Below the pieces are notes generated by a model. The model did not search any database. It was not told the DNA's origin and worked only from the letters and a program-made list of their open reading frames with translations. From an uncultured Phycisphaerales bacterium (GTDB lineage Bacteria; Planctomycetota; Phycisphaerae; Tepidisphaerales; Tepidisphaeraceae), in NCBI GenBank assembly GCA_963844715.1, contig CAWJPJ010000007.1:896001-960000 (forward strand): a stretch of 64,000 bases of DNA, written 5' to 3'. Every line of letters starts with the position of its first letter. The first letter of the stretch is position 1. Of the stretch, positions 1-17,199 are shown one piece after another. The translations under genes and the position numbers were made by a program.

Positions 1-20
1 CCCAGAACACGAGGTGAATC

Positions 21-370: not shown

Positions 371-829
371 CGATGGCGTTTGCCCGGAATTGTTTACCCC
401 CGCGCGAAGTGCGCATTAGGGCCGCGCCAGCGCCATTGGGCAAAACCAATATCCTCGCGCATTAGAAATTATTTGAAAAACGGCTGAACCGTTGAAAATG
501 CGCAGAACATCGCGGCGCACGAATCGCCGCGAAAAAAGTAGTAGGTCCGACGGGGTAACGAAATCACGCTGGATGCTTTACGCGGACGCGATGAGCATCA
601 ATCCAGGAATAAGGGGGGGCAAAATAGATTGCGCTCGGGCGAAAATGCTCCCTGTTCTTTCGGTTCGTATTGACTGCCGAACCGGTGGGCCGACTGCCTC
701 GGCTGCAATTTAAGGGAGACGTATCGCTCTCAAAGGGCACATGCTGTTCGGGAGTCCATCGCAGAGATACACTTGTCACCGACGACGCCGGTCCATCGAA
801 GTCGTCGATGCGGATGGAGCGCCCAGTCG

Positions 830-2870
830 ATGACGCGAAACGCGACCACATTCGTCGCTCTCATTGTATTCACGGCACTGTATGTCGTTGCGGGCAAGCT
901 CGGACTTTCGATGGCGTTTCTCAACGCCAGCGCTTCGCCCATTTGGCCACCGACCGGATTAGCGCTGGCCGCAATGCTCTTATTTGGTTATCGCCTGTGG
1001 CCGGCAGTGCTGGTTGGGGCTTTTGTCGTAAACCTGACGACCGCAGGCACAATTTCCACTTCGGCGGTGATTGCGGCGGGTAACACCTTGGAAGCGGTCG
1101 TGGGCGCGATGCTCGTACGGCGCTTCGCTTCCGGCACGGCTGCTTTTGAGCTGGTGCCGAATATCTTTCGATTCACCGTGTTCGCCGCGATTCCGAGCAC
1201 GATGATTAGCGCGTACAGTGGGAGTCACGTGCCTAGCCATAGCCCACTTCGTACCGTGGGATTTGTATGGACAGGTATGGATGACGTGGTGGACTGGAGA
1301 TTTCGCCGGCGATCTGCTAGTCGCACCGCTTTTGATCATCTGGGCCACCGCGTCCCGGCCCGCCCTGAGGCTCCCACACATGTTGGAGGCGCTGGCCCTG
1401 GCGGCCGTTCTAATCGTGTTGGGTGACCTGATTTTCATCCGCTGGCATTCCCATTACGGTCAGGCGGAAGCGCTCGCTTATTTGGCGGTTCCATTGTTGA
1501 TCTGGGCGGCGTTCCGTTTTCAGCAACGGGGCGCTGTCGCCGCGGCGTTTTTGCTGTCGGCGATCGCAGTTCGAGGAACGCTCCGCGGCGCCGGGCCCTT
1601 TGCCACCGGCAATGCCAATGAATCTCTGGTGCTTCTGCAAACGTTCATGGGCGTCAACACGCTCATGGCTTTGATCCTCGCGGCTGTCGTTGCCGAGCGA
1701 ATGCGCGCCCACGGTGAGAGGGAACAGATTCTCCAGCGCGAGCGAAACGCGCGGGCTGAGGCGGAGCAAGCCAATCGCGCCAAGGACCAGTTCCTCGCTA
1801 TGCTCAGCCACGAACTGCGGACGCCGCTGAGCCCCGTCTTGCTCGCGACAACGTTGCTGGAAGGCAGTCCCGACCTGCCGCGTCATCTCTCCGAGCATAT
1901 TCAAATGATCCGGCGCAACGTCGAATTGGAGCGGCGGCTGATTGATGACCTTCTCGATTTGACGCGAATCACCCGTGGTAAGTTCCAACTGAATCTTACG
2001 ACAGCGGATGTCCATGAGGTGCTCCGCCTCGCCGTGGAGATTTGCTGTGCCGGACGAGTCGATGACCTCGTATTGAATTTGTCGGCGCCTCAGCATCATG
2101 TCAACGGCGACCCGGCACGGTTGCAACAGGTGTTTTGGAACCTAGTCAATAACGCCGCCAAATTCACGCCGGTAGGCCGGTCCATCACGATACGATCGAA
2201 GAACGTCGACGAGCAAAGTGCGATTGAGATTGAGGTCTCGGACACCGGCGCGGGAATTGAACCACAGTTTCTCCCGCGATTATTCAATGCGTTCGAGCAG
2301 GGTGATGCAACGTGCGCCGGACGTTCGGTGGGCTTGGTTTGGGGTTGGCAATCACCAAGGCGCTCGCCGAAGCGCACTGCGGCACGGTGACGGCCCACAG
2401 CGCAGGCCGCGATGCGGGCGCCACCTTTACGGTACGCCTGCCTGTCATAGCCGAGGTTTCACAACAAGAGTTTGAGCCGGCACCTAAGACCGAGCCAGTG
2501 CGAGTGCAAGGCGCAGGTATTGCTGGTGGAGGATCACGAGGAGACATTGCAAGTCATGGCTGAGTTGCTGAGGCGCCTCGGTCATGAGGTTACGACGGCC
2601 TCCACAATCAGGGAAGCGTTAACCGCCGCCCACGACAAACACTTCGACTTGGTCATTAGTGATTTGGGCCTTCCGGACGGCTTAGGCTATGACTTGATGC
2701 GTGCTCTTCGTGCGGGAAACCATTTGCGCGGCATCGCACTGAGCGGCTACGGAATGTCCGAGGACATCCAGTTAAGCCAAGAGGCAGGGTTTGCCGAACA
2801 CCTGGTTAAGCCGGTGGACCTAAATAAGCTGGAGGAGGCGATGATACGCGTCCTGGCAGGACACAAATAG
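830..2870 (+). CDS. MASE1-domain hybrid sensor histidine kinase/response regulator, split by about 3 frameshifts
   Basis: MASE1 motif SPIWPPTGLALA; H-box FLAMLSHELRTPL; N-box QQVFWNLVNNAAKFT; G-boxes DTGAGI and GGLGLGL; receiver LLVEDH...DLVISDLGLPD...KPVD. Spread over ORFs 773, 1218, 2312 and 2472. Confidence 0.9.
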
Positions 2871-3159
2871 TCAGCCGCGGGCCTTGAGGCCGCCACCGAA
2901 CTTACAACTATGGGCGGGACAAATTCGAAACATCCGCGGCCGCCAGGATAGGATGCGGTTCACGGAGCGGACACCCAAATCAGAATCGCTCGCCGGTCAC
3001 TTAACTGTGTCGGAGAGTAGGTCGAAACGAATCGAGTTATGATTTGCACGGACGGCTAGAAACCTTTGAATGAGCGCCGGCGATACAAATGCCGATCTTG
3101 CCTTTGCGGTCCTCTCTACCTTCTACACCTCGCCTGCTCTATTGCCGTAATACCAGCAA

Positions 3160-3198
3160 CCGGGGTGAAAGGATTTGTACCTTCGGCCTCTGCCCCCA
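3160..3198 (-). tRNA. Degenerate 3' half of a tRNA-Pro-like gene (possible att remnant)
   Basis: Minus strand reads TTGGGGGCAGAGGCCGAAGGTACAAATCCTTTCACCCCG: T-stem GAAGG/CCTTT, T-loop TACAAAT (one change from TTCAAAT), acceptor 3' strand CACCCCG typical of tRNA-Pro. No 5' half or CCA. Confidence 0.55.
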
Positions 3199-3313
3199 AT
3201 AGGACGGCTAAAAGTGTCCAAGTTTAATCTAGATGAGATTTCTCGTTACCGATCGATTTTGTATTTCGACCGGGACTCATACTTTCACACACTTTCCACT
3301 TTGCGAGGAAATC

Positions 3314-3673
3314 TCAACGCTGCGCACGCTTAAATTCGATCGAGGTGATCGTCCCGCATTCGGGGCAGCGATCGGGGGTCGCGCGAAGGTCGTACCCGCA
3401 TCTAGGACATATTCGGCGCTTATGATAAAGACGCTGCAGGTGGAGATATCTTAAATAGCGGTAAATTTGATAGCAGGTTAGAAACGTCAAAATCGCCGAC
3501 GCGCCAAACTATCAAAAAAAATAAATAAAATAATCACGCCGCGATTCCGTTGCGGCTCATTAGTGCCAGACTACCAACTATAAAAAACTGAAGTGCAAAA
3601 TCCCAACCAAAAGCTGATGCCAAGACAAGAACAGCGATCATGGCAAATAATCTGGCGCGCGCGGTACCTTCAT
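3314..3673 (-). CDS. Small membrane protein with C-terminal [19 protein letters not shown] zinc ribbon (frameshifted, not in the ORF track)
   Basis: Manual minus-strand translation gives hydrophobic segments then ...[36 protein letters not shown]. This tail is common in Phycisphaerae. The start is approximate. Confidence 0.7.
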
Positions 3674-3817
3674 GTTAGCCACATCCACAGTTATACCTGT
3701 GAAAACGCTCTCGCGGGCAACCGGCCCTAGCTGATGGGATTGCCATAGCCGACAGAATACATTCATCTTAGGAATCCTCTTAGCAAAATCGATCTTCAGA
3801 TGTTCTAATCAATCCTG

Positions 3818-5422
3818 ATGACTTCGCGTACATTCAACCTTCCGGCTCGCCTGCAATCCAGGGGACAGCGGATCATGAATGGGAGAAATGTTGGTCTACT
3901 CTTGAACTTTCTGCCTCCGATCGCAATCGCGCTCGTCTTCTTTGTAATGGTCTATTCTCAGGCTCGGTATGCCCAATCATTGGCGATAAATCCGGATGAA
4001 GGGGTTAATTTGATAAAAAGTGCGATGGTCGCGAAGGGATACCATCTCTATAGCCAGATATGGAATGATCAGCCTCCCGTATTTACCCTGATGCTGAGCG
4101 AAGTATTTCGTGCGGTCGGATTCTCAATTGAAGCCGCTCGCATTTTTGTTTTGGTACTCTCAAGCATCCTGGTCGCCTGTCTTTACCAAACCATCCGGTG
4201 GCTTCATGATCACGGAACGGCGATCGTCACCGTTCTGTTTTTAGCGAGTTCTGCTTGGTTCATTCCGCTCAGCGTCGCCGTAATGATCGGCATGCCTGCA
4301 ATTGCGATGGCAGCAGGATCGCTTTTCTTGGCTAACGGTGCGATTCGATCGTCCAACCGCGCACTTTCCATGAGCCTGCTCTTTGCGTCTGGTCTTTTAT
4401 TTGGTCTGTCAATTCAAACGAAGATTTTTACGCTAATCGTCTTGCCGGCCGTGCTAATAAGTCTTCAGGGTCGGCCTGCCACCGTCTCGCGCAGGCAAGC
4501 TTATTGGGTTTGGTTTTTGAGCGTGTTGAATATTTTCATCCTTGTCATGGTGTTTACTGGAGAGAATTGGGACGAAATGCTGATTCCGCCGCTGCGACTT
4601 CGCGCAATGGTAGCTGTTAATCAAGTTTTTTCATTGCATGATATGTTTTCTCAAATCACCGAGCACTTCTTCTTTTTATTGCCGTTTTCACTCGTCGGTG
4701 TAATTGTGGGACTGCTGCGATCGCCAAGGGAGTCCTTTATCCCCATCTCGTGGTTGGCTACAGGCGTTCTCGTCTTCCATTTTCACCGTCCGTTGCGATA
4801 CCACTACTCACCGATGCTGGAGATTCCGCTGTGTTGGCTGGCGGCGATCGGACTATGCGCCACATTCATGCTAGGTCTTCGAGTATTTCTATGGGTCTGC
4901 TATCGTGCTTTGTCGAACGAAGAGACGAGGCCAAGCGCGTATGCATTTGCAGGGCATGCGACGGTTGCAACGTTGGTTGCGATGCTTGCAATAGGAGTGG
5001 CAACATACCTCACGATCGCTTTAACGTTTCGGGCTCACTATTGGCGTGAGCAGCTAAACCCAACCGTTTCATCTTTTTCTCATACTTCAAGTGCGCTTGT
5101 TGCCGAAATCCAGCAATTCAAAAGACATACTCATTGGATGTATACCGATCTTCCAGTCTATGCGTTCCGCGGCGGTGTGAATGTCCCACCTGAACTAGCT
5201 GTCATAACACAGAAACGCCGACAGACTGGCTTTCTTTCTGATGACCAAATTCTCGGGCTTATACACAAGTACACACCAGAACAAATTCTCATCGCCCGAT
5301 TTTCTTATGGGACAGATTTTCAGGCGATCCTGAGCCAGGATTACGTTCAGATTGGCGCCGAAGCCAGTAGATATAATCACGTTACCAGGCTGTATGTCAT
5401 CAAATCGTTGGCCGAGCGTTAG
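3818..5422 (+). CDS. Multi-pass GT-C glycosyltransferase (ArnT/PMT family-like)
   Basis: N-terminal 'PDEG' motif, 'LYSQIWNDQPP', 'SIQTK' and many TM helices. The true start may be the ATG near 3875. Confidence 0.75.
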   Translation: MTSRTFNLPARLQSRGQRIMNGRNVGLLLNFLPPIAIALVFFVMVYSQARYAQSLAINPDEGVNLIKSAMVAKGYHLYSQIWNDQPPVFTLMLSEVFRAVGFSIEAARIFVLVLSSILVACLYQTIRWLHDHGTAIVTVLFLASSAWFIPLSVAVMIGMPAIAMAAGSLFLANGAIRSSNRALSMSLLFASGLLFGLSIQTKIFTLIVLPAVLISLQGRPATVSRRQAYWVWFLSVLNIFILVMVFTGENWDEMLIPPLRLRAMVAVNQVFSLHDMFSQITEHFFFLLPFSLVGVIVGLLRSPRESFIPISWLATGVLVFHFHRPLRYHYSPMLEIPLCWLAAIGLCATFMLGLRVFLWVCYRALSNEETRPSAYAFAGHATVATLVAMLAIGVATYLTIALTFRAHYWREQLNPTVSSFSHTSSALVAEIQQFKRHTHWMYTDLPVYAFRGGVNVPPELAVITQKRRQTGFLSDDQILGLIHKYTPEQILIARFSYGTDFQAILSQDYVQIGAEASRYNHVTRLYVIKSLAER

Positions 5423-5735
5423 GACATCGTTCGTAATCTTTCCAATCTTACTAACGCTGGCACAATGCGTTATGAAGAGATTTGTGCAATTTTGCCGACG
5501 GGCACGTAGCCATTGGAGATTTACGTTGACATATTGTGTCTAGGAGGTATGTTACATGGCGAATTCATCTTTAAGCGGGAACGGTGGGGCATACGTTTGG
5601 CACAACACCACCCCAGTAGTGACTACAATGGCGTCAAGAGTCTGCATCGCATAGGAGTCATTTTGGGCCTCGGAAAGATTTGGCTATTGATTGGCCGATG
5701 TAAAAGGTGCGAATATTCGGAAGGGAGGATGCAAA

Positions 5736-6203
5736 ATGATACGAGTTTTGCGTGTCATGTCCGTGTTGTTCGCAGTCGCGGTACTTACCGTTCTATGGGG
5801 ATCTACGAAAAATTTGGTTCCACCTATTGGGAGCGGCTATGTGCTTGGTTTGACGGATATGCGCCAAATTCACGGCATGACTGGCTGTCCGAGCGTGGCC
5901 CTGGGTCCAAATACACAATCTTGCCAAACGAATGGAATTGACTGTAACGGAACATACCCCAATTGTGGAACGTGCATCGGTCCTTGTGCAGAGAATGACT
6001 CCTTAACGAGCGGGATGGGCAATCCCGATGCCACAGGCTATTTTGCATCAAAACCCTGTCCAGGAAAATACTACGTGAATTCATGCGCTCCGTGGCAGAT
6101 CTTAGATCCGGACAATCCTTCTTGGGGATGTTCCTGCGACGATGGCACGCCGCTAACACCTCAGCCATGCGGCGGTAGCTACACCGGGTTGAATGGCTGC
6201 TGA
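5736..6203 (+). CDS. Secreted cysteine-rich precursor peptide A (12-Cys core)
   Basis: GGAGG RBS; hydrophobic signal; LTDMRQIHG|MTGCP; 12 Cys; ends in GC; paralogous to the next gene. Confidence 0.8.
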   Translation: MIRVLRVMSVLFAVAVLTVLWGSTKNLVPPIGSGYVLGLTDMRQIHGMTGCPSVALGPNTQSCQTNGIDCNGTYPNCGTCIGPCAENDSLTSGMGNPDATGYFASKPCPGKYYVNSCAPWQILDPDNPSWGCSCDDGTPLTPQPCGGSYTGLNGC

Positions 6204-6245
6204 TACGGGACAACGATGAACGACGTGCTAATCTGGATTTAGGAG

Positions 6246-6752
6246 ATGATTATGAGACAGCGATTTGTCTATGTGATCGCACTTTTAGCCGCATCGGTAG
6301 TTTGGACATTTAGTTTCGGTGATGCTCGCGCTATGGGATCCAAGAATGGGCCTAGTGTAGCGATCATACTTGACAATTCGGCGATGAGTCAGATCCACGG
6401 TATGACCGGTTGTCCGGCGCTTTCGCTGAGTTCCTCAACAGCATGCGCTAACAACGGTAGCACCAACTGCAACGGAGGAATAACGACTAATGGTTGTCCT
6501 GGGACCTGCATGACTCCTTGCGGTGCAGATAACTCGGCGGGCAACAGCGGCAATGGCAACAACGCAAACGGTTATCTGTCTAGTGCTCCATGCACGACCA
6601 CGTACGCTGTAAACACCTGCATTCCCGGTACGATTACAGGTCCTGATGGTCAAGGTGGCTATGCGGACTACCCCACATGCAACTGCAACGGGTCGTCAAT
6701 CGGAAATGCATTACCTTGCGCTGGCACGTACACTTTCGAAAAAGGCTGTTAG
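6246..6752 (+). CDS. Secreted cysteine-rich precursor peptide B (12-Cys core)
   Basis: AGGAG RBS; signal peptide; NSAMSQIHG|MTGCP; 12 Cys collinear with peptide A; ends in GC. Confidence 0.8.
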   Translation: MIMRQRFVYVIALLAASVVWTFSFGDARAMGSKNGPSVAIILDNSAMSQIHGMTGCPALSLSSSTACANNGSTNCNGGITTNGCPGTCMTPCGADNSAGNSGNGNNANGYLSSAPCTTTYAVNTCIPGTITGPDGQGGYADYPTCNCNGSSIGNALPCAGTYTFEKGC

Positions 6753-6885
6753 TAATAGTCGTTTTTCAAACAGTCCGTTGCCCCCAAGAAACGATTCTAG
6801 TAGCGTCTGCCGGATTCGCTTGATAGTTCCAGACATGTTGGGGCGGTGAGAGGGCGTATCTCTAGCTCATCGTGAGGTCACATCC

Positions 6886-8121
6886 ATGCGCTTCTTGCGA
6901 CCTTACCTCGTTGCGGTGTTCGTGAGTCTTTTCTACGCTGGCCAATTTGGGACATTGGAACCAAGCGGCGGGCGCGCGATAGCCGCGACAACGGCACCGT
7001 CCGCCGGCGAACAATCCGATCATACTTCTTCGTTGTCACCTCAGTTTACTCGGCAGGACATCCTTGCCTACGTTGAAGCAGGTCGATCGAAGATATCTGA
7101 TTTAACTGTGTCGTTCTCTTTCAACGCGACGCATTCTGGACCTGACGATGCGGCGATTCGCGATCACACAAAAATTATCCTCAAGGGCTCAATGATCTAT
7201 AGCGATGAGGTCTACGGAGGCGATGCTTCCAAATCACCGCGCCTTTACGACCGCGAATTGGCTTTCAACGGCCACATTGGCACGATCCACCAAAAAAGCG
7301 AAGGCATTGCATCCTTTGGGCCGGAGAAGCCAATCGATTGTCGTGTGAGGGGGACAGGATTTTTCGATCTAGGTTGGCTCAATCCCCCTATCGAGGGCGG
7401 CACCGGCTGGAATGATCAGAGTCTGATCTCCCTGGTAAAGTCGTCTACGTCCAAGATGCGTCCCCAGCTGGAAATCGTGGCCGGTCACCCGTGTTACGTA
7501 TTCGACGCCTTTGGACCCGAATCAGACGCAACTGATCCAATGATTACCGCATGGCTTGATCCACAACAAGGATTTTTACCGATCAAAGTCGTCTATTTCT
7601 TGCGATCAACTCCCTTGATGGAGTCAGACATTTATACATCCAAGGAGGTTCTTCCAGGTTTGTGGATGCCCCTGCGTGGCCGCAAATACGTGTATTTTCG
7701 CAAAGATAGTCCTTATATCCGCGAAAATCAGGAACATATCATGATCGTGGATAGCGCGGACTCGGAAACGCCAGCGATCGCAGTGAATACGGGAGTCAAA
7801 GACGATTTTTTTGATCTGTGGAAGCATTTGCCTCCGGGTACGCTTTTAATCGACAAGCAAACTCGGAAAATGATAACTGTCGGTGGAAAGGATTGGCGTG
7901 CGACCGCGGATGAAGCCGTAGCCTCTGCCGCTGGTCAAGATTTGTCCGTGACAGACGCTGCTTCGGTTGGATCGCCGGTTACGCCGGCATCAGCAACCGT
8001 TGGACCAACCCCTGTATCATGGTGGAGCAATTCCGTGTTGCTCGAAGTTGGATCGGGTGTTGTTGTCCTAGTGTTGTTGATCCTAAGCGCAGTGATATTC
8101 CGGTTTCACAAAATGGCGTGA
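6886..8121 (+). CDS. Exported protein with C-terminal TM anchor; possible LolA-like beta fold
   Basis: Signal peptide; 'EIVAGHPCYV', 'AWLDPQQGFLP', 'GLWMP' patterns like LolA-like/sigma-E regulatory folds; terminal hydrophobic helix plus basic tail. Confidence 0.5.
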   Translation: MRFLRPYLVAVFVSLFYAGQFGTLEPSGGRAIAATTAPSAGEQSDHTSSLSPQFTRQDILAYVEAGRSKISDLTVSFSFNATHSGPDDAAIRDHTKIILKGSMIYSDEVYGGDASKSPRLYDRELAFNGHIGTIHQKSEGIASFGPEKPIDCRVRGTGFFDLGWLNPPIEGGTGWNDQSLISLVKSSTSKMRPQLEIVAGHPCYVFDAFGPESDATDPMITAWLDPQQGFLPIKVVYFLRSTPLMESDIYTSKEVLPGLWMPLRGRKYVYFRKDSPYIRENQEHIMIVDSADSETPAIAVNTGVKDDFFDLWKHLPPGTLLIDKQTRKMITVGGKDWRATADEAVASAAGQDLSVTDAASVGSPVTPASATVGPTPVSWWSNSVLLEVGSGVVVLVLLILSAVIFRFHKMA

Positions 8122-8168
8122 TGGGTAATTGGGTTGCGGGATAATTGAGAATGTGGGGAACTTCGCCC

Positions 8169-9974
8169 ATGACCGAGAGAGAACGCCCTATATTTTTTTT
8201 GTTAGTTTCGGTCTCGGCATTTCTGCTGCAAAGCGCAGTTGGCGCCGCCAGCATCGCCACGGATAGCGCCACCCCGGCAGACGGACGTTGTTCATTATCG
8301 CTTGAGGATGCAAACCTCTCCGCGTCCCCGCCTGCCTGCGGCCCGGCAAGCATGGCAATCGCCCTTAAATTGCTCAACTGCAGCTTTACGAATGACGAAC
8401 TGACGAGGCTTGCCGACAGCCAAGGGGATTCAACATTCGCAGAGTTGGCCGAGTTCGCACAGCACAAAGGCCTTTACGCGGTCGCGGTGCGTTTGGGGCC
8501 AGGTCAGTTACTAAAGCTTCATCGAATCGCTATCTTGCAAATACTCTCGCCGCTGATCATAAATGGCGTTCACGCGCCCCATTTCATCGTGTTTGCCGGA
8601 CCCGTGCCAGGCACCGACCATGGCCCATGGTGGAACAAGGACTCGGTATTTTTGTTCGACTCAGTAGCCGGGGATGGCCTGCGCGGCCCATTGCCCATCG
8701 AAGCGCTATCAGAGATGTACACTGGGAACGCCCTAGTGCTATCAAAGTATCCTGTCGATCCGAATGAATTCGCTGTTGCTCATGCGGAGTCCCCGCACGA
8801 TTCGTCGCGCACGATCCGCGACGGCTCCATGGCAGGGTTGGGCGCCGCAGCAATTTTGCTATTTTGTGCCACCCTTCGCAGAAAAACGGGTTCGACAACG
8901 ATGCCGACTGTCGCGCCAACGATTGCGATGGTCATTTATATGACCCTATTTTCCGCCTCATTCAATTCTGCGGCCGCCGATTCGAGCAACCCAACTACGC
9001 GACCGGCAGGTGACTCGGCTGCTACTATTAACTCGAATGCCAACCAGCTCTGTGATGTCGGGAATGTTTCAAAAGGAGAACAAGTCCAACATTCGTTCGA
9101 ATTCACGAATTCTAAACCGATCGACATTGACTTACAGATCGCAGGAACTAGTTGTACATGTTTAAGCGCGCGGTTCGATGGACCGTCTCATCTTCGGCCG
9201 GGTCAAAAAACTAACGTTGTGCTGTCTGCCATCGCACGTAATGGCGGTCCCGTGCAAACCTCCGCTCTGATCAAGACTTCGGCGCAAGAAATGTTTCTCC
9301 TGACTATTCAGATGGCGGTGATAAACGACACGGATTATAGTCCGCGCACTGTTGATTTTGGAGATGTTTGGGCAGACCAAGGAAAGCAAAGCCGCCCTCT
9401 ACATTTTACGCATTACACGTCGAATGCGGGCGCATTCAAAGACTTTCTTGTCCGCTCTTTCTCACCATGCGTAAGCGTTTCGCTGGACAAACCAACATGG
9501 ACCAGTGGAAGCGACGGCGCGAAAACCGTCGATGAGAACGTAACGATTACTCTTGACCCGGCGTTGGCCTCGCTGGGTCCATTAGGTAAAGGTATTTTGG
9601 CAACGGCGAGCGACGGTAATAAGAAACTTTCATTCACGATTGATTGTATCGGCCAAGTTGTGCCTATCGTTGGGGCAATCCCTGATCAGATCGCGGTATT
9701 CGGCGCAAACCTCCCAAATGAAATCCCGGCATCGGTGACGCTAAAGGCAGTTGATGGACGCCTTGTGAACGTCGAAACGATTGAAGCATCGAATTTGACG
9801 ATCGCCAAATGGACGGCAACACCATCGGGGGACGGAACAATAAATCTGGAGATTATAATTCAACCAAACATGCTGCAGGGTCGGGCTCAAGGATCGCTGC
9901 ATGTCAAATTCATCGCGCTTAAGCACTATATGCTTGATATTCCCGTTCGCGTGGTGGATACGACGTCCCGATAA
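8169..9974 (+). CDS. Exported C39-family cysteine peptidase fused to TM segments and DUF1573 Ig-like domains
   Basis: C39 triad motifs ACGPASM / HFIVF / FLFDS and closing 'YTGNALVLS'. DUF1573-like 'HSFEFTN...TSCTC...LRPGQ'. No ABC ATPase domain. Confidence 0.8.
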   Translation: MTERERPIFFLLVSVSAFLLQSAVGAASIATDSATPADGRCSLSLEDANLSASPPACGPASMAIALKLLNCSFTNDELTRLADSQGDSTFAELAEFAQHKGLYAVAVRLGPGQLLKLHRIAILQILSPLIINGVHAPHFIVFAGPVPGTDHGPWWNKDSVFLFDSVAGDGLRGPLPIEALSEMYTGNALVLSKYPVDPNEFAVAHAESPHDSSRTIRDGSMAGLGAAAILLFCATLRRKTGSTTMPTVAPTIAMVIYMTLFSASFNSAAADSSNPTTRPAGDSAATINSNANQLCDVGNVSKGEQVQHSFEFTNSKPIDIDLQIAGTSCTCLSARFDGPSHLRPGQKTNVVLSAIARNGGPVQTSALIKTSAQEMFLLTIQMAVINDTDYSPRTVDFGDVWADQGKQSRPLHFTHYTSNAGAFKDFLVRSFSPCVSVSLDKPTWTSGSDGAKTVDENVTITLDPALASLGPLGKGILATASDGNKKLSFTIDCIGQVVPIVGAIPDQIAVFGANLPNEIPASVTLKAVDGRLVNVETIEASNLTIAKWTATPSGDGTINLEIIIQPNMLQGRAQGSLHVKFIALKHYMLDIPVRVVDTTSR

Positions 9975-9997
9975 GCCGGCGCTGACGGGCGACAATC

Positions 9998-11149
9998 ATG
10001 CCAAAATCAAATTATCTGCATCGACTGAGCCTGTGGATGGTCGTCGTAATAGTTCTTTGTTGTGCAATCGCACTGGCAAGCCTGAAATCGTTCAACAATC
10101 GAGCCAGATCCACCGCAAATCCCGTCACCATGTCGCCCGATATCCGAGAAGCGGCGACACAGAACGTTGTGAGAGCGCACGAGGCACTCGCGAGATACGA
10201 CGCGGCACCCACAGATACAAGCCAAACGCCTTGGGCGTTATTCCACGGGCTACTAGGGCATCACGGTGATTTCCCGCTGCGAGATTCTATTTCCGGGGAG
10301 AGCGTAAATTGTGAGGACTGGCTGTTGCAGCAGGCAGCTGCGAAACCGATTTATTGGCAAACGCCGTTAGTCACGCAACGGGACTGGGGCGTTTGCTTTA
10401 CACACGGCAACCTCACCATCACAGAGCGTTTTGAGGATCACTTTTGCCAGTTCTTGTTTATTCTTATGAATCTCGGCCTCGATCCTGATAGGACGACGGT
10501 AAGAGTGCCACCGGACGGCCACGCATGCACGTTGAGGCAGATGGTCTACAACGAACAAACGTTTTGCAACGGGGCGCTGGACGTGAGTTGGGCGTTACCT
10601 CTCTTTGCCAGGTGGGGAAATCCGACTTGGACGAATAAATTCAACGAGCAATACGACCTTGGGTCTTTGATGACCCAACATCTTGATCTCGAAAAGCATT
10701 GTGACGCTTGTTTTGGAACCCACTGGCGGATGGGTCTGGCACTAACTTTATCATTCGCGGCCGAGCGGCTTCCAGAGGATGTGCGGGAACGGGCGAATAG
10801 TCGTCTTCAGCAGTTGATCGAAGAAGCTCATACCGGCCAAGATCCGGATTCAGGCCGTTTCCGTCTTGAGTCCGCGGCGGCAGCGATCGGTATCCACGAT
10901 CTCAGCCAACTTCCAAGTGATCGATCCGCCATTCTTTCGCATCAGGGCCATACATTGGCGTGGCTTATGGTTGCTTTGTCCGACGATCAATTGGCCACCG
11001 AAATGTGGCCACATAAGGGGGTAGAATTTCTAATAGATCAGTTGCAAGGTCCAACGGATTCCCTCAACTACGGCGCCTATTCGCACTGCGCGGATGCACT
11101 TCGTCTTTACCAAGCACGAATGCAATCGATCCTAAACTCGTCGAGATGA
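9998..11149 (+). CDS. Uncharacterised membrane-anchored/exported helical protein with His/Cys motifs
   Basis: N-terminal TM; motifs PWALFHGLL, EDHFCQFL, ACFGTH, HQGHTLAW, YSHCADAL; 383-aa ORF inside the operon. Confidence 0.6.
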   Translation: MPKSNYLHRLSLWMVVVIVLCCAIALASLKSFNNRARSTANPVTMSPDIREAATQNVVRAHEALARYDAAPTDTSQTPWALFHGLLGHHGDFPLRDSISGESVNCEDWLLQQAAAKPIYWQTPLVTQRDWGVCFTHGNLTITERFEDHFCQFLFILMNLGLDPDRTTVRVPPDGHACTLRQMVYNEQTFCNGALDVSWALPLFARWGNPTWTNKFNEQYDLGSLMTQHLDLEKHCDACFGTHWRMGLALTLSFAAERLPEDVRERANSRLQQLIEEAHTGQDPDSGRFRLESAAAAIGIHDLSQLPSDRSAILSHQGHTLAWLMVALSDDQLATEMWPHKGVEFLIDQLQGPTDSLNYGAYSHCADALRLYQARMQSILNSSR

Positions 11150-11159
11150 CTGGTCGCGT

Positions 11160-12152
11160 ATGGAATTGCAAATCAATTCACACCAAGCGATTGACGCAGC
11201 GCCACATTGCGCTCAACTCGCCTCTCGCGAACGATTGCATAGAATTACTGAAGTTTTAATTGCTATTGTCTTTTTCACCGCCGCAGCTTTTAAGGCATTT
11301 GCACTTTTTGAGCACTCCCAGCCGACTTTTTTATCGCCGTTATTTCAAACACGAATTTCACGCGGACTTCTCGCACAGATCGAATTGGCGATCGCTACGT
11401 GGCTTGCGATTGGCGGCTGGTCTCATGCCCGACTAATAAGCGCTTTGATCTTCCTGGCGGCACTATCAGCCGTGGCGACATATGACGCGGCCCATTCATA
11501 TCCGAGTTGCGGATGTTTCGGATCACTCAAGATTTCCCCCTTGATCACGCTAACGTTCGACGTATTGGCAATCCTAGCTCTTGTGGCCACCCGGCCGCGA
11601 TCACATCGACTTGCATTCACTCCGCCATCTCGTCGTCGGCGGGCAATTGCGGGTGGTTTTTTCCTGGTTTCATCTATGTTCATCTGGGTGGCATGTGCTT
11701 ATAGCCCACATACCCAATCGCAAGCCGGTTCTTTGCCATCAAATGCATCGGACGATGTAATCGTTCTGACGCCACAACTATGGATTAACCAGTCGTGGCC
11801 TTTATTTGCTGACGTTGATCAATCGACTGCGCTCCGCCGCGGCCGATGGCTCATTCTTATGTACCATTACGATTGTGACTCCTGTATTCGAGCGATTGCC
11901 AACTATCGAGCCATAGGCAGATTTAGCATTTCTAATCGGCCAAACATTGCATTCATCGCGATACCGCCCGACGCACCTGTAGACGAAGACCCTGTCCCCG
12001 CCTCGTCGAACTACCTTCGATTAAAACTCACATCTGAGCACGAATGGTTCGCGACAACCCCACTCGCACTGTACTTGGAGAATGGCTTAGTTCGACATGT
12101 CGCCGAAGGAGACGCCGCCGAGAGACCCGATCCCACCTGGTGGCAACCCTAG
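11160..12152 (+). CDS. MauE/DoxX-family membrane protein fused to a thioredoxin-like CxxC domain
   Basis: TM helices with the MauE signature SCGCFG, then a soluble domain with YHYDCDSC and 'ATTP' (cis-Pro-like). Confidence 0.8.
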   Translation: MELQINSHQAIDAAPHCAQLASRERLHRITEVLIAIVFFTAAAFKAFALFEHSQPTFLSPLFQTRISRGLLAQIELAIATWLAIGGWSHARLISALIFLAALSAVATYDAAHSYPSCGCFGSLKISPLITLTFDVLAILALVATRPRSHRLAFTPPSRRRRAIAGGFFLVSSMFIWVACAYSPHTQSQAGSLPSNASDDVIVLTPQLWINQSWPLFADVDQSTALRRGRWLILMYHYDCDSCIRAIANYRAIGRFSISNRPNIAFIAIPPDAPVDEDPVPASSNYLRLKLTSEHEWFATTPLALYLENGLVRHVAEGDAAERPDPTWWQP

Positions 12153-12207
12153 CGCCGCGAATACTTGGCTAAAAGTCTCTCTCCTGACTGCAATCGAAAA
12201 ATCCGAT

Positions 12208-13236
12208 TCAATTTCGTTTCATACCTGCAGCAATCTGATCCTCCTGAAAAGTCGCCTGATCTATTTCGGATTTATATTGCAACTGCATCGGCAGATTTGG
12301 CCGGTAACGGCGAACAAAGGCATCATAATAACCTTCAGCTTCGTGGCCCCGGCCCAAATTACAAAGGCTGTCGATCAATGGAGGAAGTGCGTTGGCTGAG
12401 TATTTGTAATCTGGCTGATCTATTACACTCTTAAAGTGAACAATTGCTTCCGCATATCTACCTGAGCGGTAAAGGGCTAATCCAAAGCCCCAATCAAAAG
12501 CATTTCGTTCCCCTTGCTTCATTCCCGCAGGCGAAAGTTTTTCCAGAATTCCCACTGCATCTGATGTCTGTCCTTTCAACATGAAACACTCTGATAGCCC
12601 GATTTTTACATGAGTCATGGACCTCGTGACCGTTGCATCGCCTGGAACATAATGTCGAACCATGTCGGAATAAATACAGAACAAGGTGTTCAACGCTTCG
12701 GTGTGTTGGTCATCTCCGCTTTCGATCAAAGGCCAAAGCACATTTTTATAGTCCTGCATGTGCGCCTGCATGGCTTGAAGAATCGGAAGTGTCCTGGTGG
12801 AAGATCCGTTTGCTGCGAGCAATTCGCTTTCGGCGTGGCTTGCCGCCGTCCGGTAGATGACTTCGCTTGCGCGAGGGTCTTTCGAGACGGTATGGAACGC
12901 CTCCGCAATCGCAAATAAATCAGTAGCCCGCAGAGACGTACTCGACAAGGTCGCTCTCAAATTGGCAAGCATGTCCGCGGAAGAGACAGTGCTCGCGGGC
13001 GATTTCTGAAGCCTGACGACCATCCATTCCCGAAGTCGAGGATCGCCGGAACTCATCGAAACCAACGTATCGCTGTTTGTCGCTTGCGAAGTTCGACCGC
13101 CTGTCGGCAATTCGTCCGATAGTTCTGTAGTCCGTGATTGAAGCAAGAACAGCAGTAGAGCCAAAAAAATAGCCAAGGAGGATAGGATTACGGCTGTTAA
13201 GAGCACACGCCGACGAGCAGCATCAATTCCCATCAA
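12208..13236 (-). CDS. Membrane-anchored TPR-like protein
   Basis: N-terminal TM; TPR-like GLALYRSGRYAEAIVHFKSV and LCNLGRGHEAEGYY. Confidence 0.65.
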   Translation of the reverse strand: MMGIDAARRRVLLTAVILSSLAIFLALLLFLLQSRTTELSDELPTGGRTSQATNSDTLVSMSSGDPRLREWMVVRLQKSPASTVSSADMLANLRATLSSTSLRATDLFAIAEAFHTVSKDPRASEVIYRTAASHAESELLAANGSSTRTLPILQAMQAHMQDYKNVLWPLIESGDDQHTEALNTLFCIYSDMVRHYVPGDATVTRSMTHVKIGLSECFMLKGQTSDAVGILEKLSPAGMKQGERNAFDWGFGLALYRSGRYAEAIVHFKSVIDQPDYKYSANALPPLIDSLCNLGRGHEAEGYYDAFVRRYRPNLPMQLQYKSEIDQATFQEDQIAAGMKRN

Positions 13237-13626
13237 ACACCCCGCAATGACTTATAAATGTCCCTACAGAATATCATTTTACGGCGAAATTTACAGAATA
13301 ATCGTCTTTCGAAGTTCCCAACCGACTTGACTGCAATCGGCGTCGTTCTATGCCCTATGGGGTGCAGTCGGGCTGGGGGCCGGCATCGTATGTGTTGCAA
13401 GCGAGTGACAGACATCCGTCTTTTCGCTAGCAACATGTTGGTTTCTGGCGGTATACTATGGGGATAGCTTTTGGAACATTGATTATCGGGAGGGAATGAT
13501 CGCGCATCTAGGGCAATCGTCGGCACGGGACCGCCGTTTGTTCGACAGACCGCGAAACTAGATCCGAACTTCCGCGGTCTCGAAATTCTGAAATAGACGC
13601 AAGTGTGCTGGGAGGAATCCAAAGCC

Positions 13627-15329
13627 ATGGCTTGGCTTTTGCGATGGAAATTTTGGCATTGGACACTCGCGTCAATGGCGCTCGGATGGGTTTTGTCCTA
13701 CTGGTATGGTGGGCGCGTTTTTATTCCTGACGATCCAACGGCGCGAGTCAGTGAAAGCTATTTCTGGCATCAGGTAGACATCTCATCGAACCTTCAGGCC
13801 GCCACAGTCGATCGGATTATCCTTTATCCAATTCACCGCAAGGTCCAACTAATCACATTTGAATTGGTGACACACGACCTCACGCAGAGGTCTGGCGTTG
13901 CATTTCATTTTTTTTACGCAACACATGGCGATATCGAGCCCCGATTGACCGCAGCGCAAATCACTTTTGCTCGCGCTTGGTGGACCTCGCCGGTTTTTGG
14001 CGACCTCTTTTGGGGTGGGGGCACAGTGCTGGTTTTCGGTCTCGCTTGGCCGTTACTCTTATTTGATCTTCGGCGCCGTGGTTTCGGGCCGCCGATAATC
14101 GAGTCGCCAGTAGAGCTGCCCAAATCTCCCCTCAAGCAACAACAGGCCGACCAAATCCCCGCGAAGGCAACTACTGCCACGTACTCAAAACTTACCGTAT
14201 TGGACGCGATGATGGAAAGGAGCCTCTTATTACCCGAGCGACAACACTCACCCTCTCCACAACCACCGGCGGGCAACGTGAGATCGCTTAATACCACTCC
14301 GCTCGATCCACAAATCAGCGAAAAACCCCAGGAAGGGAAGGAATATGAAGGCATCTACTACCCCGTCGAGCATCCTAAATCAAAAAAGCCCGAGGGTTTT
14401 ACTCTAGTCGAACTCCTAGTGGTAATTGGGATTATGGCGATTCTGCTTGGATTGCTACTTCCGGCAATTACAGGTGCAAGATTAGCGGCGATGCAGCTAA
14501 TTTGCACCTCCAACTTACGCGCCATCGGTCAAGGCTTTTCAGTTTATCTAGCGCAGAATGGAGGCACCTATCCGCCCGCCTACACTTACGTGGGCGAGAC
14601 AATTCAAAACGGTATTGAACAGCCCACAGAGCCGAATCAAGGACATCTTCACTGGAGTTGGTACTTGTTCAAAACGGGCGGCGTTCCGGCAGAGTCGTTT
14701 CAATGCCCATCGCTCGATCAAGGGGGCCTCCCACCTGAACAGACCACGCCCGACAACTTGGAGCCCGGGCAGGCGAATTTGGCACCGCCGGATCAACAAG
14801 CTTTCCGCCTAGCCTATACCGTTAATGAAGCAATTGTTCCGCGAAATAAATTCGTTCTTGGCTTTCAAGGCGCGGTTCGTTATTACCAATACGTCAAAGC
14901 GAATCAGGTCACACATCCGAGCCAGACGATTTTAGCAACTGAGTGGGGCCCTGCCGGTGCGCGCGTTCCCCGCGACCGGAACCTCGGGCTACTTTCGCGT
15001 CCAAAGTCATCGTCCTGTTGCAGGATATGTTACGGGCTCAGGAATACTTGATTTCTATAATCTCCCGCCCGGAGCCGCGGTTTCGGCCGGCTACAGCGTC
15101 AGACCTCGATCCCGACCCCGACAGCACTACGGGCTTCACACATGTGGAGCTTGATTGGGTGGGACGTAACCATGGTCTCCGCGCGGGTTACCCAGATGAT
15201 CGCCGTACGAATTTTCTCTACGTTGATGGACACGTCGAGTTGAAAAGTATCTATGAAACTCTCGCACCATTCCAATGGGGTGAACAGTTTTGGAGCCTTA
15301 ATCCGCGAAATGATCAAGAAACTCCGTAA
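13627..15329 (+). CDS. Membrane domain fused to a prepilin-type (DUF1559/H-X9-DG) protein, frameshifted near 14960-15070
   Basis: Internal G|FTLVELLVVIGIMAILLGLLLPA...C-SNLR-IG at ~14395; C-terminal RNHG...TNFLYVDGHVE in ORF 14943..15329. Confidence 0.8.
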
Positions 15330-15650
15330 CAGCCCGCAGACCATTCCCCGCAACGATTATCCACATCCAACGGCTGTTACGCCATGTCTACGATGCACAA
15401 GTATACTGTCGCCGCCCCAATCGATTCCAGCGACGGGTACCGCGGATGTTGAGGCGATCGTGCGGCCAGTGAATCGGTTTGCTTCGACCGTCAAGCCTTC
15501 TTAACGACCGACGACCCTCAAATGCCACCGCTGTCGCTCAACGTTATGGCGCAAATTCAAAGAACAATCCAAACCTATCGAGTTTTCGAATGTATTGGAT
15601 GAAATGCTTCACTTCGCTACCATGGTGTCCCTAAACAATGGAGGAATTGG

Positions 15651-15878
15651 ATGGCGCTTCGCGTGATTGTGCGGATCGATCTTCCGCCGGCCGCTCGCCA
15701 GCGGTTTACGAAAGTGCCGGATCAATTCGGCATGACTCAAGTGGCGGTGAATAGCCGACTGCTGGAGTGGATGACCAGGCAACCGGAGGAGATTCAAGCG
15801 TCGGTTTTGGGCCTCATGCCCCGCCAAGCAGAGAAAGAAGTTGCGCACGAATTTTTGAAGCAGATGGCACAACAGTAA
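15651..15878 (+). CDS. Small putative ribbon-helix-helix-like DNA-binding protein
   Basis: GGAGG RBS; 75 aa; beta-strand then 'GMTQVAVNSRLLEW' helix pair. Confidence 0.5.
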   Translation: MALRVIVRIDLPPAARQRFTKVPDQFGMTQVAVNSRLLEWMTRQPEEIQASVLGLMPRQAEKEVAHEFLKQMAQQ

Positions 15879-16244
15879 CAAACCGGTTGTTGTTATATTA
15901 ATCAAATCATCAATTACTCACAGCGGTGCGGGTCACTTGCGCTCTGATTCCACGCGCTGGCGGCCCATAAAGCTGTGAGAGTCATTGATCACATTGGCTA
16001 AGATAAGCAATTCGTCCGAATCGGATGCTACTGCCGATCGTTCATTCGATGCGTCTAAGCATCCCTTGGGATACATTCTTCACTTGGCAAGCCAAAGACC
16101 CGCTTGGGGAACTCCAGCACAACCACTCGCATCGCGAGGAGAAAAGCCATGACCAACTGAATCATCGCGCCCTCCTGCACGAAAACAAAAAACTATAGCA
16201 CCGCCGGACGCGGCAGCGCTAATCAAGGTTTCATTGGTGCTTAT

Positions 16245-17199
16245 TCAACTGTCAATGGCTTCGATGCGGTATTCGCTTCCATCGAATCCTGTGACTTTGC
16301 TGATGGACTCGATGCGCCGGCCCTCGTGCGTGCGGCGGATGAATACGATTATTCCGATCGTGCGAGCGATGGCCCGGCGCGGAACGTGACGCGAGACCTC
16401 TCCGATCAAATCTTCCAGCCGAGACAGTGCATCTTCGGCGCTGTTGGCGTGAAGGGTTGCCAGTCCACCCGGATGTCCCGTGTTCCATGCCTTCAGCAGC
16501 GCGCACGCTTCGCCACCGCGCACTTCGCCCACGATAATCCGATCTGGCGCAGCGCAAAGCGCAGCGCACCAGTTCCTCCATCGTCACCGGCGGATCGGTC
16601 GGCTTGGTGAGCAGTTCCACGCGATCGGGAGAACTGCATTGCAATTCGCGGGTATCCTCGATGAGCACCAGCCGATCCCCGGCGAATGCCGCCTCGGCTA
16701 ATACGGCATTGGCTAAAGTGGTTTTGCCTGACCCGGTGCCCCCGGCGATGAGGAGGTTGTCCCGCCGGTCGGCAGCGTCGCGGATCGTGCGGGCTTGAGT
16801 TGCGGTCATAATTCCCTGCCGCACATAATCATCCAAGGTGAAGATCAGTTCCGCCCGTTTGCGGATGCAAAACACGGGACGCTCCGTCACCGGCGGAAGT
16901 TGCCCCTGGAAGCGCTGGCCGGTATGAGGCAGCGTCCCACTGAGCAGTGGGCGATGCCGGCCCACGGCTTCGCCGACGTGATCGGCCACCAGACGGATGA
17001 CCGATTCGGCGCGAGATGCTTCGATACTGCCAATGCGCGAGCGACCCTCACCGGCTCGGTCAATCCACACCTGCCCATCGGCATTGGCCATCACTTCGAC
17101 CACGCGCGGGTCATCCAACACTTGCAGGATGGCTGATCCCAGGGCGGCGCGGAGCATGTCATCGAATCGATCCGTTGATGGATTATTTGCCGTTGCCAT
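16245..17199 (-). CDS. trbB: P-type conjugative transfer ATPase TrbB/VirB11 (frameshift near 16550)
   Basis: EVMANADG; Walker A GGTGSGKTT; IEDTREL; GEVRGGEA; WNTGHPGG; TLHANSA. Confidence 0.92.

Follow-up and report, generated by a model that had tools for sequence, protein, structure and literature searches.

A run of six co-oriented open reading frames (ORFs), here called pre1, pre2, g3, g4, g5 and g6, probably encodes an extracytoplasmic maturation cassette for pro-proteins of the double-glycine type which, judging by its sequence, would work without an ATP-binding cassette (ABC) exporter. The run occupies positions 5736-12152 on the + strand of a 64,000-nucleotide stretch of DNA from an uncultured Phycisphaerales bacterium (contig CAWJPJ010000007.1, positions 896,001 to 960,000), and this whole stretch is referred to below as the window. 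Double-glycine (GG) leaders and C39 peptidases are the textbook elements of cytoplasmic, ABC-coupled peptide export, as known from bacteriocins, competence pheromones and many peptides that are ribosomally synthesised and then modified post-translationally (RiPPs). In the window, two small cysteine-rich precursors (pre1 and pre2) and a C39 peptidase (g4) each carry a predicted N-terminal signal peptide or membrane anchor. Comparison with other genomes indicates that this module is real and recurrent. At 11 further loci in seven genomes, an exported C39 protein is found beside a cysteine-rich protein with a signal peptide and a GG-type leader end before its first cysteine. An earlier reading of the window (the original prediction) had set the absence of such a recurring link beforehand as grounds for its own refutation; the link is present. 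A cytoplasmic or inactive C39 domain was named there as a further such ground, and the sequence points the other way: the domain is predicted to be exported and its Cys/His/Asp triad is intact. The central claim of that prediction, that an exported C39 peptidase would cut Sec-exported precursors once these have left the cytoplasm, has gained strong comparative support from these loci and from gene fusions in three genomes. We lean towards the wider view that GG leaders are processed by C39 peptidases outside the cytoplasm in a widespread pathway of the Planctomycetota, of which the window holds an acquired Gly-Met version; its products may be a new class of disulfide-rich secreted effectors or signals.

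All six ORFs lie on the + strand as originally predicted, and the gaps between them, in the order from pre1 to g6, measure 42, 133, 23, 23 and 10 bases (Table 1). Hydropathy and charge fit a signal peptide or anchor in every one of the six proteins. The absence of an ABC transporter, also part of the original prediction, holds for the cluster: a Pfam scan gave no ABC_membrane or ABC_tran match in g4 or its neighbours, and a six-frame search of the 4.55-Mb, 85%-complete assembly returned g4 as its sole PF03412 match. The only Pfam families in the cluster are DUF1573, an Ig-like match that overlaps it (PF22544), Peptidase_C39 and MauE. There are no matches for pre1, pre2, g3 and g5 in Pfam or NCBIfam, and none in PADLOC for any of the six proteins.

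Table 1. Features of the six-gene cluster and of the DNA directly upstream. Nucleotide positions refer to the window and residue numbers to the protein concerned.
Feature	Position	Residues	Strand	Remarks
Promoter-like site	5526..5553		+	TTGACA-16-TATGTT; 10/12 matches; about 180 bases 5' of pre1; a lead only
pre1	5736..6203		+	155 aa from ATG; predicted signal peptide (about residues 1-22), linker, leader, core
pre1 leader motif	5844..5879	L37-M48	+	LGLTDMRQIHGM
pre1 core		T49-C155	+	107 aa, 12 Cys
pre2	6246..6752		+	168 aa; predicted signal peptide, residues 1-29, ending ARA|M
pre2 leader motif	6369..6404	L42-M53	+	LDNSAMSQIHGM
pre2 core		T54-C168	+	115 aa, 12 Cys
g3	6886..8121		+	411 aa; predicted signal peptide; LolA-superfamily beta-fold domain at about residues 50-345
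g3 C-terminal part		388-404	+	Membrane helix (residues given) and short basic tail, after a low-confidence linker
g4	8145..9974		+	609 aa; by Pfam, alignment and hydropathy
g4 signal peptide or anchor		16-32	+	Hydrophobic; three basic residues lie before it
g4 C39 domain	8307..8759	about 55-205	+	PF03412
g4 catalytic Cys	8337..8339	Cys65	+	By alignment
g4 catalytic His	8580..8582	His146	+	By alignment
g4 catalytic Asp	8658..8660	Asp172	+	By alignment
g4 membrane helix		228-244	+	RRK directly after
g4 second hydrophobic segment		256-274	+	Weaker; leads into the DUF1573 part
g4 DUF1573 Ig-like domain	9045..9308	301-388	+	34.5 bits, cut-off 26.1; beta-rich C-terminal region beyond
g5	9998..11149		+	383 aa; N-terminal membrane helix 10-26; (alpha/alpha)6 toroid domain
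g6	11160..12152		+	330 aa
g6 MauE membrane domain	11235..11585	26-142	+	39.4 bits, cut-off 27
g6 SCGCFG motif		Cys117-Gly-Cys119	+	Short loop, predicted outward
g6 basic loop		140-162	+	Predicted cytoplasmic; 7 K/R; followed by a fifth helix and the C-terminal domain
g6 C-terminal CDSC	11874..11885	Cys239, Cys242	+	Domain predicted outward by hydropathy

The two precursors are paralogous, with 34% of residues identical over 163 columns (E 6e-22). Both begin with a basic N-terminus and a strongly hydrophobic segment (Kyte-Doolittle 2.5 for pre1 and 2.1 for pre2 over 17 residues), followed by a linker, by the stretch (D/A)M(R/S)QIHGMTGCP common to both, and by a core whose 12 cysteines are collinear, much as the original prediction had described. 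The ATG of pre1 is preceded by the ribosome-binding site GGAAGGGAGGA; a signal-peptidase-like site (ARA|M) is present in pre2, and no obvious AxA site is seen in pre1. A word-based protein search with pre2 found a single relative, P0002 (69% identity). In the alignment of these three sequences, which are the known members of the precursor family, 11 cysteine columns are invariant, the twelfth is offset by one column, and HGMTGCP is kept throughout. The core has no sequence relative in the Protein Data Bank (PDB) at E<=1. Scans of metagenome contigs with the precursor alignment and with the alignment of the C39 family yielded no confirmed relative. One candidate from a precursor-alignment scan of genome contigs (L006), an ORF of 46 aa that runs antisense to the gene of a MATE-type transporter, resembles the precursors only in the word QVHGMTGC and was rejected as a chance match.

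The segment directly before the core is in register with the GG leaders of the relatives described below, for which the consensus is L-x4-(L/M)-x-x-I-x-G-G. Leu at -12, Met at -7, Ile at -4 and Gly at -2 are kept and Met stands at -1, as is apparent when LDNSAMSQIHGM of pre2 is aligned with LEANEMSQIQGG from L041 and DQLSQIDGG from L039. Since the glycine that is invariant at -2 is in register with GG leaders, cleavage is likely to occur at IHGM|TGCP, one residue beyond the IHG after which the original prediction had placed it.

The peptidase g4 joins a C39 domain with an intact Cys/His/Asp pattern to a DUF1573 domain, and both parts of this earlier assignment stand. Cys65, Gly66, His146 and Asp172 are invariant in 20/20 aligned family members. 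LahT (6mpz, E 4.3e-6) and ComA (E 2.4e-6) have peptidase domains to which a profile of the C39 family can be aligned, and the CG, H(F/Y)VV and DP motifs of ComA then fall on their counterparts in the family. A word-based protein search with g4 found a single relative, P0004 (63% identity), and an exhaustive HMMER search with residues 1-270 against 1.84 billion representatives gave 59 clusters at E<=1e-3, 33 of them at <=1e-10. Among the 23 clusters of the 59 that were scanned against Pfam, 22 match PF03412 at E<=0.01, 18 lie above the 22-bit cut-off and 11 carry DUF1573. About a dozen of the scanned relatives share the layout of g4 at 575-656 aa, and many relatives are short proteins of 200-250 aa, made up of a hydrophobic N-terminus, the C39 domain, a single C-terminal helix and an Arg-rich tail. 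At L039, where DUF1573 is encoded by a separate gene, the DUF1573 protein has a lipoprotein-type signal of its own. On the simplest topology, the C39 and DUF1573 domains of g4 would both lie outside the cytoplasmic membrane.

A complex of the C39 domain (g4 residues 40-215, with a 20-row alignment) and residues 30-80 of pre2 was also predicted. The outcome was graded 'weak support' and is not used as evidence here. The score of 0.55 (runs of 0.55, 0.61 and 0.53) compares with 0.00 for the best of three controls, and the mark applied is reached by 116/157 solved complexes and 2/215 mismatched pairs, with 18/157 solved complexes and both mismatches at scores <=0.60. Contact agreement was at least 64% and the predicted local distance difference test (pLDDT) value of the partner at least 49, and no interface was returned. 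Because solved C39-leader complexes exist, the pass may reflect likeness to them.

Within the phylum, the C39 family profile matched 18 of 401 genomes at 25 places (E<=1e-8), and 18 of the 24 places outside the window were examined in their genomic context. Protein-atlas matches and public names likewise point to the Planctomycetota. Besides the 11 loci introduced above, these 18 places comprise four ABC-fused C39 genes (L044, L047, L048 and L049) and three other forms (L038, L045 and L046). In eight of the 11 loci (five in G280 and one each in G151, G354 and G129) the genes are unfused, and the C39 gene adjoins one or two small ORFs with 10-50 cysteines. At the N-terminus of these small ORFs lies a hydrophobic signal; a leader end follows 11-28 residues later, directly before the first cysteine. 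Examples of such ends are LSQIDGG|GCGSC, LQAVTGG|GDCEGC, LHAITGG|GDCETC, AKISGG|ACGSG, LALIEGG|ACC, AKATGG|GC, SQSYGG|SC and MQEVIGG|YLCDC. Among the candidate substrates collected, 16/18 have GG, GA or GM before the first cysteine, and a signal segment is detectable in 13/15 of the stand-alone candidates.

The association was set against a control scan, the rule of which called for a signal-like segment, G[GAM] with a cysteine within six residues, at least 8 cysteines and a cysteine content of at least 6%. Ten matches were found in 189 kb of exported-C39 loci, all of them beside C39 or g3 genes and spread over 8/9 loci. By comparison, neither the loci with an ABC-fused or other form of C39 (89 kb) nor those with g5 relatives only (104 kb) gave any match, and the loci that hold weak relatives of g3 (79 kb) gave two.

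The neighbours of the C39 genes recur to differing degrees. A relative of g3 detected by hidden Markov model (HMM) lies directly upstream of the C39 gene in 6/8 unfused loci; L036 has a protein of like size and position that the HMM does not detect, and L040 has none. With g3 as the probe, the seven strongest places (E<=1e-81) all fall in known C39 loci, and of a further 26 short loci, with flanks of about 1.5 kb, only one has a C39 domain, and that locus was already known. DUF1573 is fused to the C39 gene or adjoins it in 6/11 loci. The closest synteny is seen at G280:C70, where the order precursor-g3-g4-g5 is conserved at 30%, 37%, 33% and 42% identity, respectively. The G354 module keeps a thioredoxin-like (Trx) part, the precursor, g3, C39, DUF1573 and a MauE-Trx protein, the last being a relative of g6 at 31% identity in which MauE is fused to the CxxC domain; the CxxC domain thus occurs there a second time as a free-standing copy. 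The G151 module has four consecutive genes and includes two 10-Cys proteins; in the public annotation one product is a 'cysteine peptidase family C39 domain-containing protein' and the other three are hypothetical. By comparison of the loci, the conserved core is taken to be the precursor, the LolA-fold protein (g3) and the C39 peptidase, usually with DUF1573; MauE, the CxxC domain, the rhodanese found at one locus (see below) and g5 appear to be lineage-specific additions. The original prediction had treated all six genes as one unit, and it is to this core that the conserved part of that unit is reduced.

Gene fusions link the same components in other ways. In P0024 (574 aa), C39 and then a membrane helix come after a g3-like domain, and P0027 (656 aa) has C39 and a helix followed by a g5-like domain. 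In three genomes of the same class as the window organism (G277, with the gene at L041, 9491-11161, minus strand, G043 and G369), a single polypeptide of 551-623 aa holds five parts in the order signal peptide, g3-like domain, C39, leader and a C-terminal domain with 8-10 cysteines. The g3-like domain is recognised by comparison with the g3 family (hhalign 94.6%, E 6.5e-8, 241 columns), and so is the C39 domain with its own family (98.5%, E 1.9e-15), its Cys/His/Asp being invariant; the leaders end in EMSQIQGG, QKQIFGG or QQAIIGA. Because the fused protein contains no membrane helix apart from its single signal peptide, it must be exported as a whole; on this predicted layout, a cut at the GG motif would be the only way to free its cysteine-rich domain. 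These three fusions provide the strongest comparative argument that C39 peptidases would act on such leaders outside the cytoplasm.

Several points weigh against this reading; they concern catalysis, the place of the reaction and the constancy of the module. As to catalysis, g4 scores 21.7 bits against Peptidase_C39 in the protein scan, just under the cut-off of 22, and 24.5 bits, above it, in the six-frame search. The glutamine that lies upstream of the catalytic cysteine in ComA-type domains, and which we take to be the oxyanion-hole residue, is not conserved in the g4 family. Furthermore, the window leaders have Met in place of the second Gly; Met at -1 is unusual for a C39 substrate, the relatives having Gly or Ala, and because of it the window copy may be cut elsewhere or poorly. 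These features would suit a C39 domain that serves as a non-catalytic binding or chaperone module, as in some type 1 secretion ABC transporters, with signal peptidase alone releasing the product. We consider this improbable in view of the catalytic residues, which are invariant in all 20 members and in the three fused proteins, and of the fused cysteine-rich domain, for which GG cleavage would be the only way of release.

A second alternative accepts the protease and assigns it other substrates: g3, the DUF1573 protein or the peptidase itself would be cut, and the cysteine-rich proteins would be its partners, acting as inhibitors, regulators or cargo receptors. In leader-like register directly before the first core cysteine, Gly-Gly stands in 13 of the 18 candidates, Gly-Ala in one and Gly-Met in three, the motif lying just downstream of the C39 domain in the three fused ones, and no conserved GG-type motif is found in g3, g5 or g6 in the alignments made, all of which leaves this alternative unlikely. 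In its favour, two of the 18 candidates lack a clear GG-type motif, no activity has been assigned to the cysteine-rich proteins, and FapD, the one exported C39 peptidase that has been studied, has no established substrate according to the report on it (PMC5557850).

Extracytoplasmic cleavage by g4 also presupposes that peptidase and precursors both leave the cytoplasm. The N-terminal segments might instead not be Sec signals, with peptidase and precursors meeting in the cytoplasm and an unlinked transporter exporting the product. Signal peptides and topology were judged from hydropathy, charge and motifs alone, pre1 has no obvious AxA site, and two of the 15 stand-alone candidates have no detectable signal segment with the start codons used. 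We nevertheless regard cytoplasmic processing as very unlikely. Basic residues precede the first hydrophobic segment of g4 and follow the helix behind its C39 domain, and in the short members of the family the C-terminus is a helix with an Arg-rich tail; cores with 10-15 cysteines, MauE, lipoprotein-type DUF1573 and LolA-fold partners are typical of the periplasm; and no second C39 protein, ABC-fused or not, was found in the assembly.

Finally, the module varies in composition, and its count has limits. MauE is found beside it in 2/11 other loci (G354 and G280:C34) and g5 in 1/11, and g5-like and g3-like families are widespread away from C39 genes; the role of g3 and g5 in this cluster could therefore be a local one. 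The recurrence count leaves out six C39 places (G254, G138, G149, G417, G268:C34 and G319) and was made without the genomic context of the closest relatives, P0002 and P0004. It should also be borne in mind that the mechanism as a whole, that is export, topology, cleavage and disulfides, is predicted from sequence and comparison.

The two proteins that the original prediction had called unfamiliar and exported, g3 and g5, remain without a family match, and their hydropathy fits a signal peptide or anchor. A structural model of g3 (mean pLDDT 73.6, core blocks mostly 85-93) assigns the protein to the LolA-superfamily fold. The top Foldseek match is LolA3 (9tp6_A; E 2.7e-9, TM 0.60 on the target), and among the matches listed, of 67 at E<=0.001, nearly all are of LolA type (LolA, LolB, RseB/MucB and LprG/LprF); the modelled fold alone does not show a carrier function. 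The model of g5 has a pLDDT of 86.9. Foldseek gave nothing against the PDB at E<=0.001, and the fold was placed only by a wide VIA search. VIA-align gave Z 16.7 (rmsd 3.8, 274 residues aligned) to 3k11_A and values from Z 16.7 to 14 against GH105/GH88 proteins, terpene cyclases and epimerases over 240-285 aligned residues, likenesses that imply no function. Within the g5 family, His83, His148, His242, His318 and His363 are invariant, Cys238 is near-invariant and a CGGTH motif is present; the conserved His and Cys residues suggest a metal or active site, and the family as a whole suggests an uncharacterised group of metal-dependent proteins. Genes of this kind occur in 25/401 genomes (L052-L078) and in 20/20 genomes of one family (f19), mostly far from C39 genes; in G151, for example, they lie at 6.16 and 1.80 Mb and the C39 locus at 2.59 Mb. 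The ties of g5 to the module are limited to the G280:C70 neighbour (42% identity) and the fusion P0027.

The MauE domain of g6 (39.4 bits) and both its motifs, SCGCFG and CDSC, are present as originally described. The further label of the C-terminal part as thioredoxin-like fared less well: CDSC is there and is invariant in the three sequences of the g6 alignment, but the best PDB matches, to thioredoxin-fold proteins, are non-significant (E 0.56 and 0.71), and one g6 relative matches TraF, AhpC-TSA, Redoxin and Thioredoxin in Pfam at a sub-threshold E of 0.006-0.13. With these matches and a strand-CxxC-helix pattern as its basis, a thioredoxin fold is not established, which is a further point to be weighed with those above. 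The recurring link to MauE that had been expected is seen in the two loci named, and MauE is not a core member. No mau structural gene or mauD gene was recognised among the cluster proteins in Pfam and NCBIfam, and no known tailoring enzyme family among the six; a putative thiol oxidoreductase and a toroid protein are all that come near.

In the mechanism that we propose, both precursors would leave the cytoplasm by Sec by means of their N-terminal signal peptides. Anchored on the outer face of the cytoplasmic membrane, g4 would recognise the leader, L-x4-M-x-Q-I-H-G-M, behind the signal peptide and, with Cys65, cut after Gly-Met to free a core of 107-115 residues that starts with TGCP, as homology, recurrence and the fusions suggest. 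Given that pre1 has no good signal-peptidase site, the C39 cut might itself release this protein from the membrane. The LolA-fold protein g3, a regular partner of the peptidase by adjacency and fusion, would probably hold the unfolded or still-anchored precursor. The most likely task of g6, with its outward CGC motif and CxxC domain, would be to form or shuffle the six disulfides, and we put the chances that it is the disulfide catalyst for the six cysteine pairs at about even. The DUF1573 domain and the toroid protein g5 would be accessory parts. The product would be a secreted disulfide-rich mini-protein, and our guess is that it has a bacteriocin-like or a signalling role. A bacteriocin-like role would fit the leader type. 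A signalling role would fit because genes for extracytoplasmic function (ECF) sigma factors and likely anti-sigma factors are found near modules at L033 (1417-2738), L041 (6807-8737) and L042 (11618-13602). This adjacency hints at a regulatory or signalling link. ECF sigma Pfam domains are also combined with a g3-like part in one protein, P0068 (587 aa).

The nearest mechanistic model, by analogy, would be the leader cleavage performed by peptidase-containing ABC transporters (PCAT/AMS systems such as ComA, LahT, PCAT1 and CvaB), shifted to the other side of the membrane. g4 belongs to the same PF03412 family with the same Cys/His/Asp, and the logic of the leader is shared: it adjoins the core, has Gly at -2 and carries hydrophobic residues at -4, -7 and -12. 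In contrast to these systems, g4 has none of the ABC membrane and ATPase domains, which the true PCATs of the phylum do show (L044, L047-L049); its peptidase domain comes after a signal peptide and has a predicted outward orientation. The window leader is not itself the N-terminus but comes after a Sec signal peptide, and it ends in Gly-Met rather than Gly-Gly. The cores are cysteine-rich and on the scale of 100 aa, and LolA-fold and DUF1573 proteins are found as partners.

A precedent for an exported C39 protein exists in FapD of the Pseudomonas Fap amyloid system, described as a Sec-exported, periplasmic C39 protein that is active without an ABC transporter and needs its active-site cysteine; according to that paper, its substrate is not established and the Fap proteins have no canonical GG leaders (PMC5557850). 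Like FapD, g4 has a predicted Sec signal peptide before its C39 domain, judged from hydropathy and charge. Unlike FapD, it is membrane-anchored and lies outside any fap operon, with cysteine-rich, LolA-fold and toroid proteins as its neighbours, and its putative substrates are cysteine-rich and have near-canonical leaders. No published exported C39 other than FapD was found, and no description of the module was found in literature in which subscription journals are thinly covered, so that its absence from print is not proven. The earlier statement that no such pathway has been described thus stands for the module and has to be qualified for the exported C39 peptidase. What would be new is GG/C39 processing without an ABC exporter, most likely outside the cytoplasm; the C39 family, the GG leaders and the FapD precedent were known.

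The remaining parallels are looser. MauE is thought to help to form the disulfides of the cysteine-rich small subunit of methylamine dehydrogenase (MADH), as cited in a study in which candidate peptide gene clusters with mauE are listed in Streptomyces (PMC7794033). g6 resembles the MauE/MauD pair of the mau cluster in its MauE domain (PF07291) and differs from it in that MauE is fused to a CxxC domain and no mau structural genes occur in the cluster; with the window counted, MauE is linked to the C39 module in 3/12 loci seen. As a proposed membrane redox domain coupled to an outward CxxC domain, g6 would also be comparable to the DsbB-DsbA system and to the VKOR-thioredoxin fusions of periplasmic disulfide formation, although its membrane domain belongs to an unrelated family (MauE/DoxX). 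The model of g3 matches LolA, LolB and RseB at E 2.7e-9 to 1e-5, with a TM-score of up to 0.61 on the target. Unlike these proteins, to the LolA members of which it is about 10% identical, g3 is tethered by a C-terminal helix and stands in an operon with the peptidase, to which it is sometimes fused, and a link to lipoprotein sorting is not evident. 'RiPP-like', the term used in the original prediction, fits loosely: a leader-like motif and a dedicated putative protease are present and the products are small secreted proteins with a propeptide, but no known tailoring enzyme family was found among the six proteins and the cores have about 107-115 residues.

If the proposed pathway is real, genome-mining rules that demand an ABC-fused C39 domain miss a whole set of secreted cysteine-rich products, FapD gains relatives whose substrates are evident from sequence, and the self-contained fused forms offer a simple test system. 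Cores of about 100 residues with six disulfides would also be a new source of stable mini-protein scaffolds. As the proteins of the G151 module are publicly recorded under the name of a cultured species, the idea is directly testable.

The genomic setting of the cluster points to acquisition. At about 3-16 kb of the window the GC content is low (0.47-0.55), most 1-kb bins around it having about 0.59-0.63, and no orthologue of g4 was found in 60 relatives (2 of the same genus, 34 of the same family and 24 of the same class), the two weak matches there being confined to its DUF1573 region. Conjugation genes follow at 16252-23179 on the minus strand and encode a VirB11/T2SSE-type ATPase, a TraG/VirD4 coupling protein (PF02534, 276 bits), a relaxase with DUF3363, DUF2840 and an AAA_24 protein; a gene for an S24 (LexA-like) peptidase is then found at 25021-25458. 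The run looks like an integrated conjugative element adjoining the low-GC cluster, and the cluster was likely acquired horizontally. The window version, rare, with its Gly-Met site and its own MauE-CxxC protein, has probably been transferred. Such an island could also bring together six genes by chance, and the low GC content, the adjoining conjugation genes, the absence from 60 relatives and the irregular membership of g5 and MauE in the module would all agree with this. It is nonetheless extremely unlikely that they are chance neighbours, when the gaps between them are only 10-133 bases, another family of the phylum has kept precursor-g3-g4-g5 in the same order, and fusions join g3, C39, g5 and the substrate in various pairs.

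Some of the other loci show further variation. At L035 (G280:C34; 9645-11267, + strand) the C39 domain is fused via membrane helices to a rhodanese domain (60.9 bits), and a free-standing MauE gene follows directly. L040 (G129:C29) holds two genes for extremely cysteine-rich proteins on the minus strand, at 11386-12750 and 14968-15825, with 72 Cys in 454 aa and 50 Cys in 285 aa and the leaders LSPQEMKEIKGG and LPGSEMQEVIGG; they adjoin a 189-aa lipoprotein-type C39 protein and tetratricopeptide repeat (TPR) proteins. L037 (G151) has another set of genes at 3464-6084 (minus strand), some 2 kb away from the main module and in the opposite orientation to it. Its products are a DUF1573 protein, a protein of 389 aa that has a C-terminal helix, and a secreted protein of 146 aa with 11 Cys in which no GG motif is clear. 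L085 (2520-3029, minus strand) and L106 (2603-3040, minus strand) encode secreted proteins with 15 and 14 Cys, respectively, and Gly-Ala before the first cysteine. These two genes lie directly upstream of weak g3-like genes, no C39 gene is present within the 1.5-kb flanks, and the loci may be variant modules.

Other genes surround the cluster in the window. A MASE1 histidine kinase and a response regulator are encoded at 1218-2870 (+ strand), at the high-GC left edge before the low-GC stretch. Within that stretch, upstream of and co-oriented with the cluster, lies a gene at 3818-5422 (+ strand), the product of which, a PMT_2 glycosyltransferase of GT-C type, has about 10 membrane helices. It was considered as a part of the system and dropped, having no counterpart in other loci by BLASTP; that it might glycosylate the Ser/Thr/Asn-rich cores is a suggestion without support. 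Downstream, a prepilin-type N-methyl protein, probably of DUF1559 type, is split into overlapping ORFs at 13603-15051 and 14943-15329 (+ strand), which may reflect a frameshift or a pseudogene, and similar N_methyl/DUF1559 genes directly adjoin the fused C39 genes at L041 and L042. TPR-repeat proteins adjoin the module in three loci, namely in the window (12208-13236, minus strand), at L032 (8014-11874) and at L040 (10215-11366 and 12594-14939), an adjacency that may be due to chance. No tRNA was found at positions 1-20000. Promoter-like sites show no enrichment in the region, with 5 found where 7.5 were expected, and the terminator scan likewise gave no excess over chance.

DNA runs from one soil study contain the stretch with the cluster. 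In one root metatranscriptome run (X5), two contigs at least 99% identical to the window cover the ends of the precursor genes (6106-6303 and 6701-6916), from which nothing follows for the parts left uncovered. They are at most a hint that the precursors are expressed, given that DNA carry-over is possible and that contigs give no level of expression.

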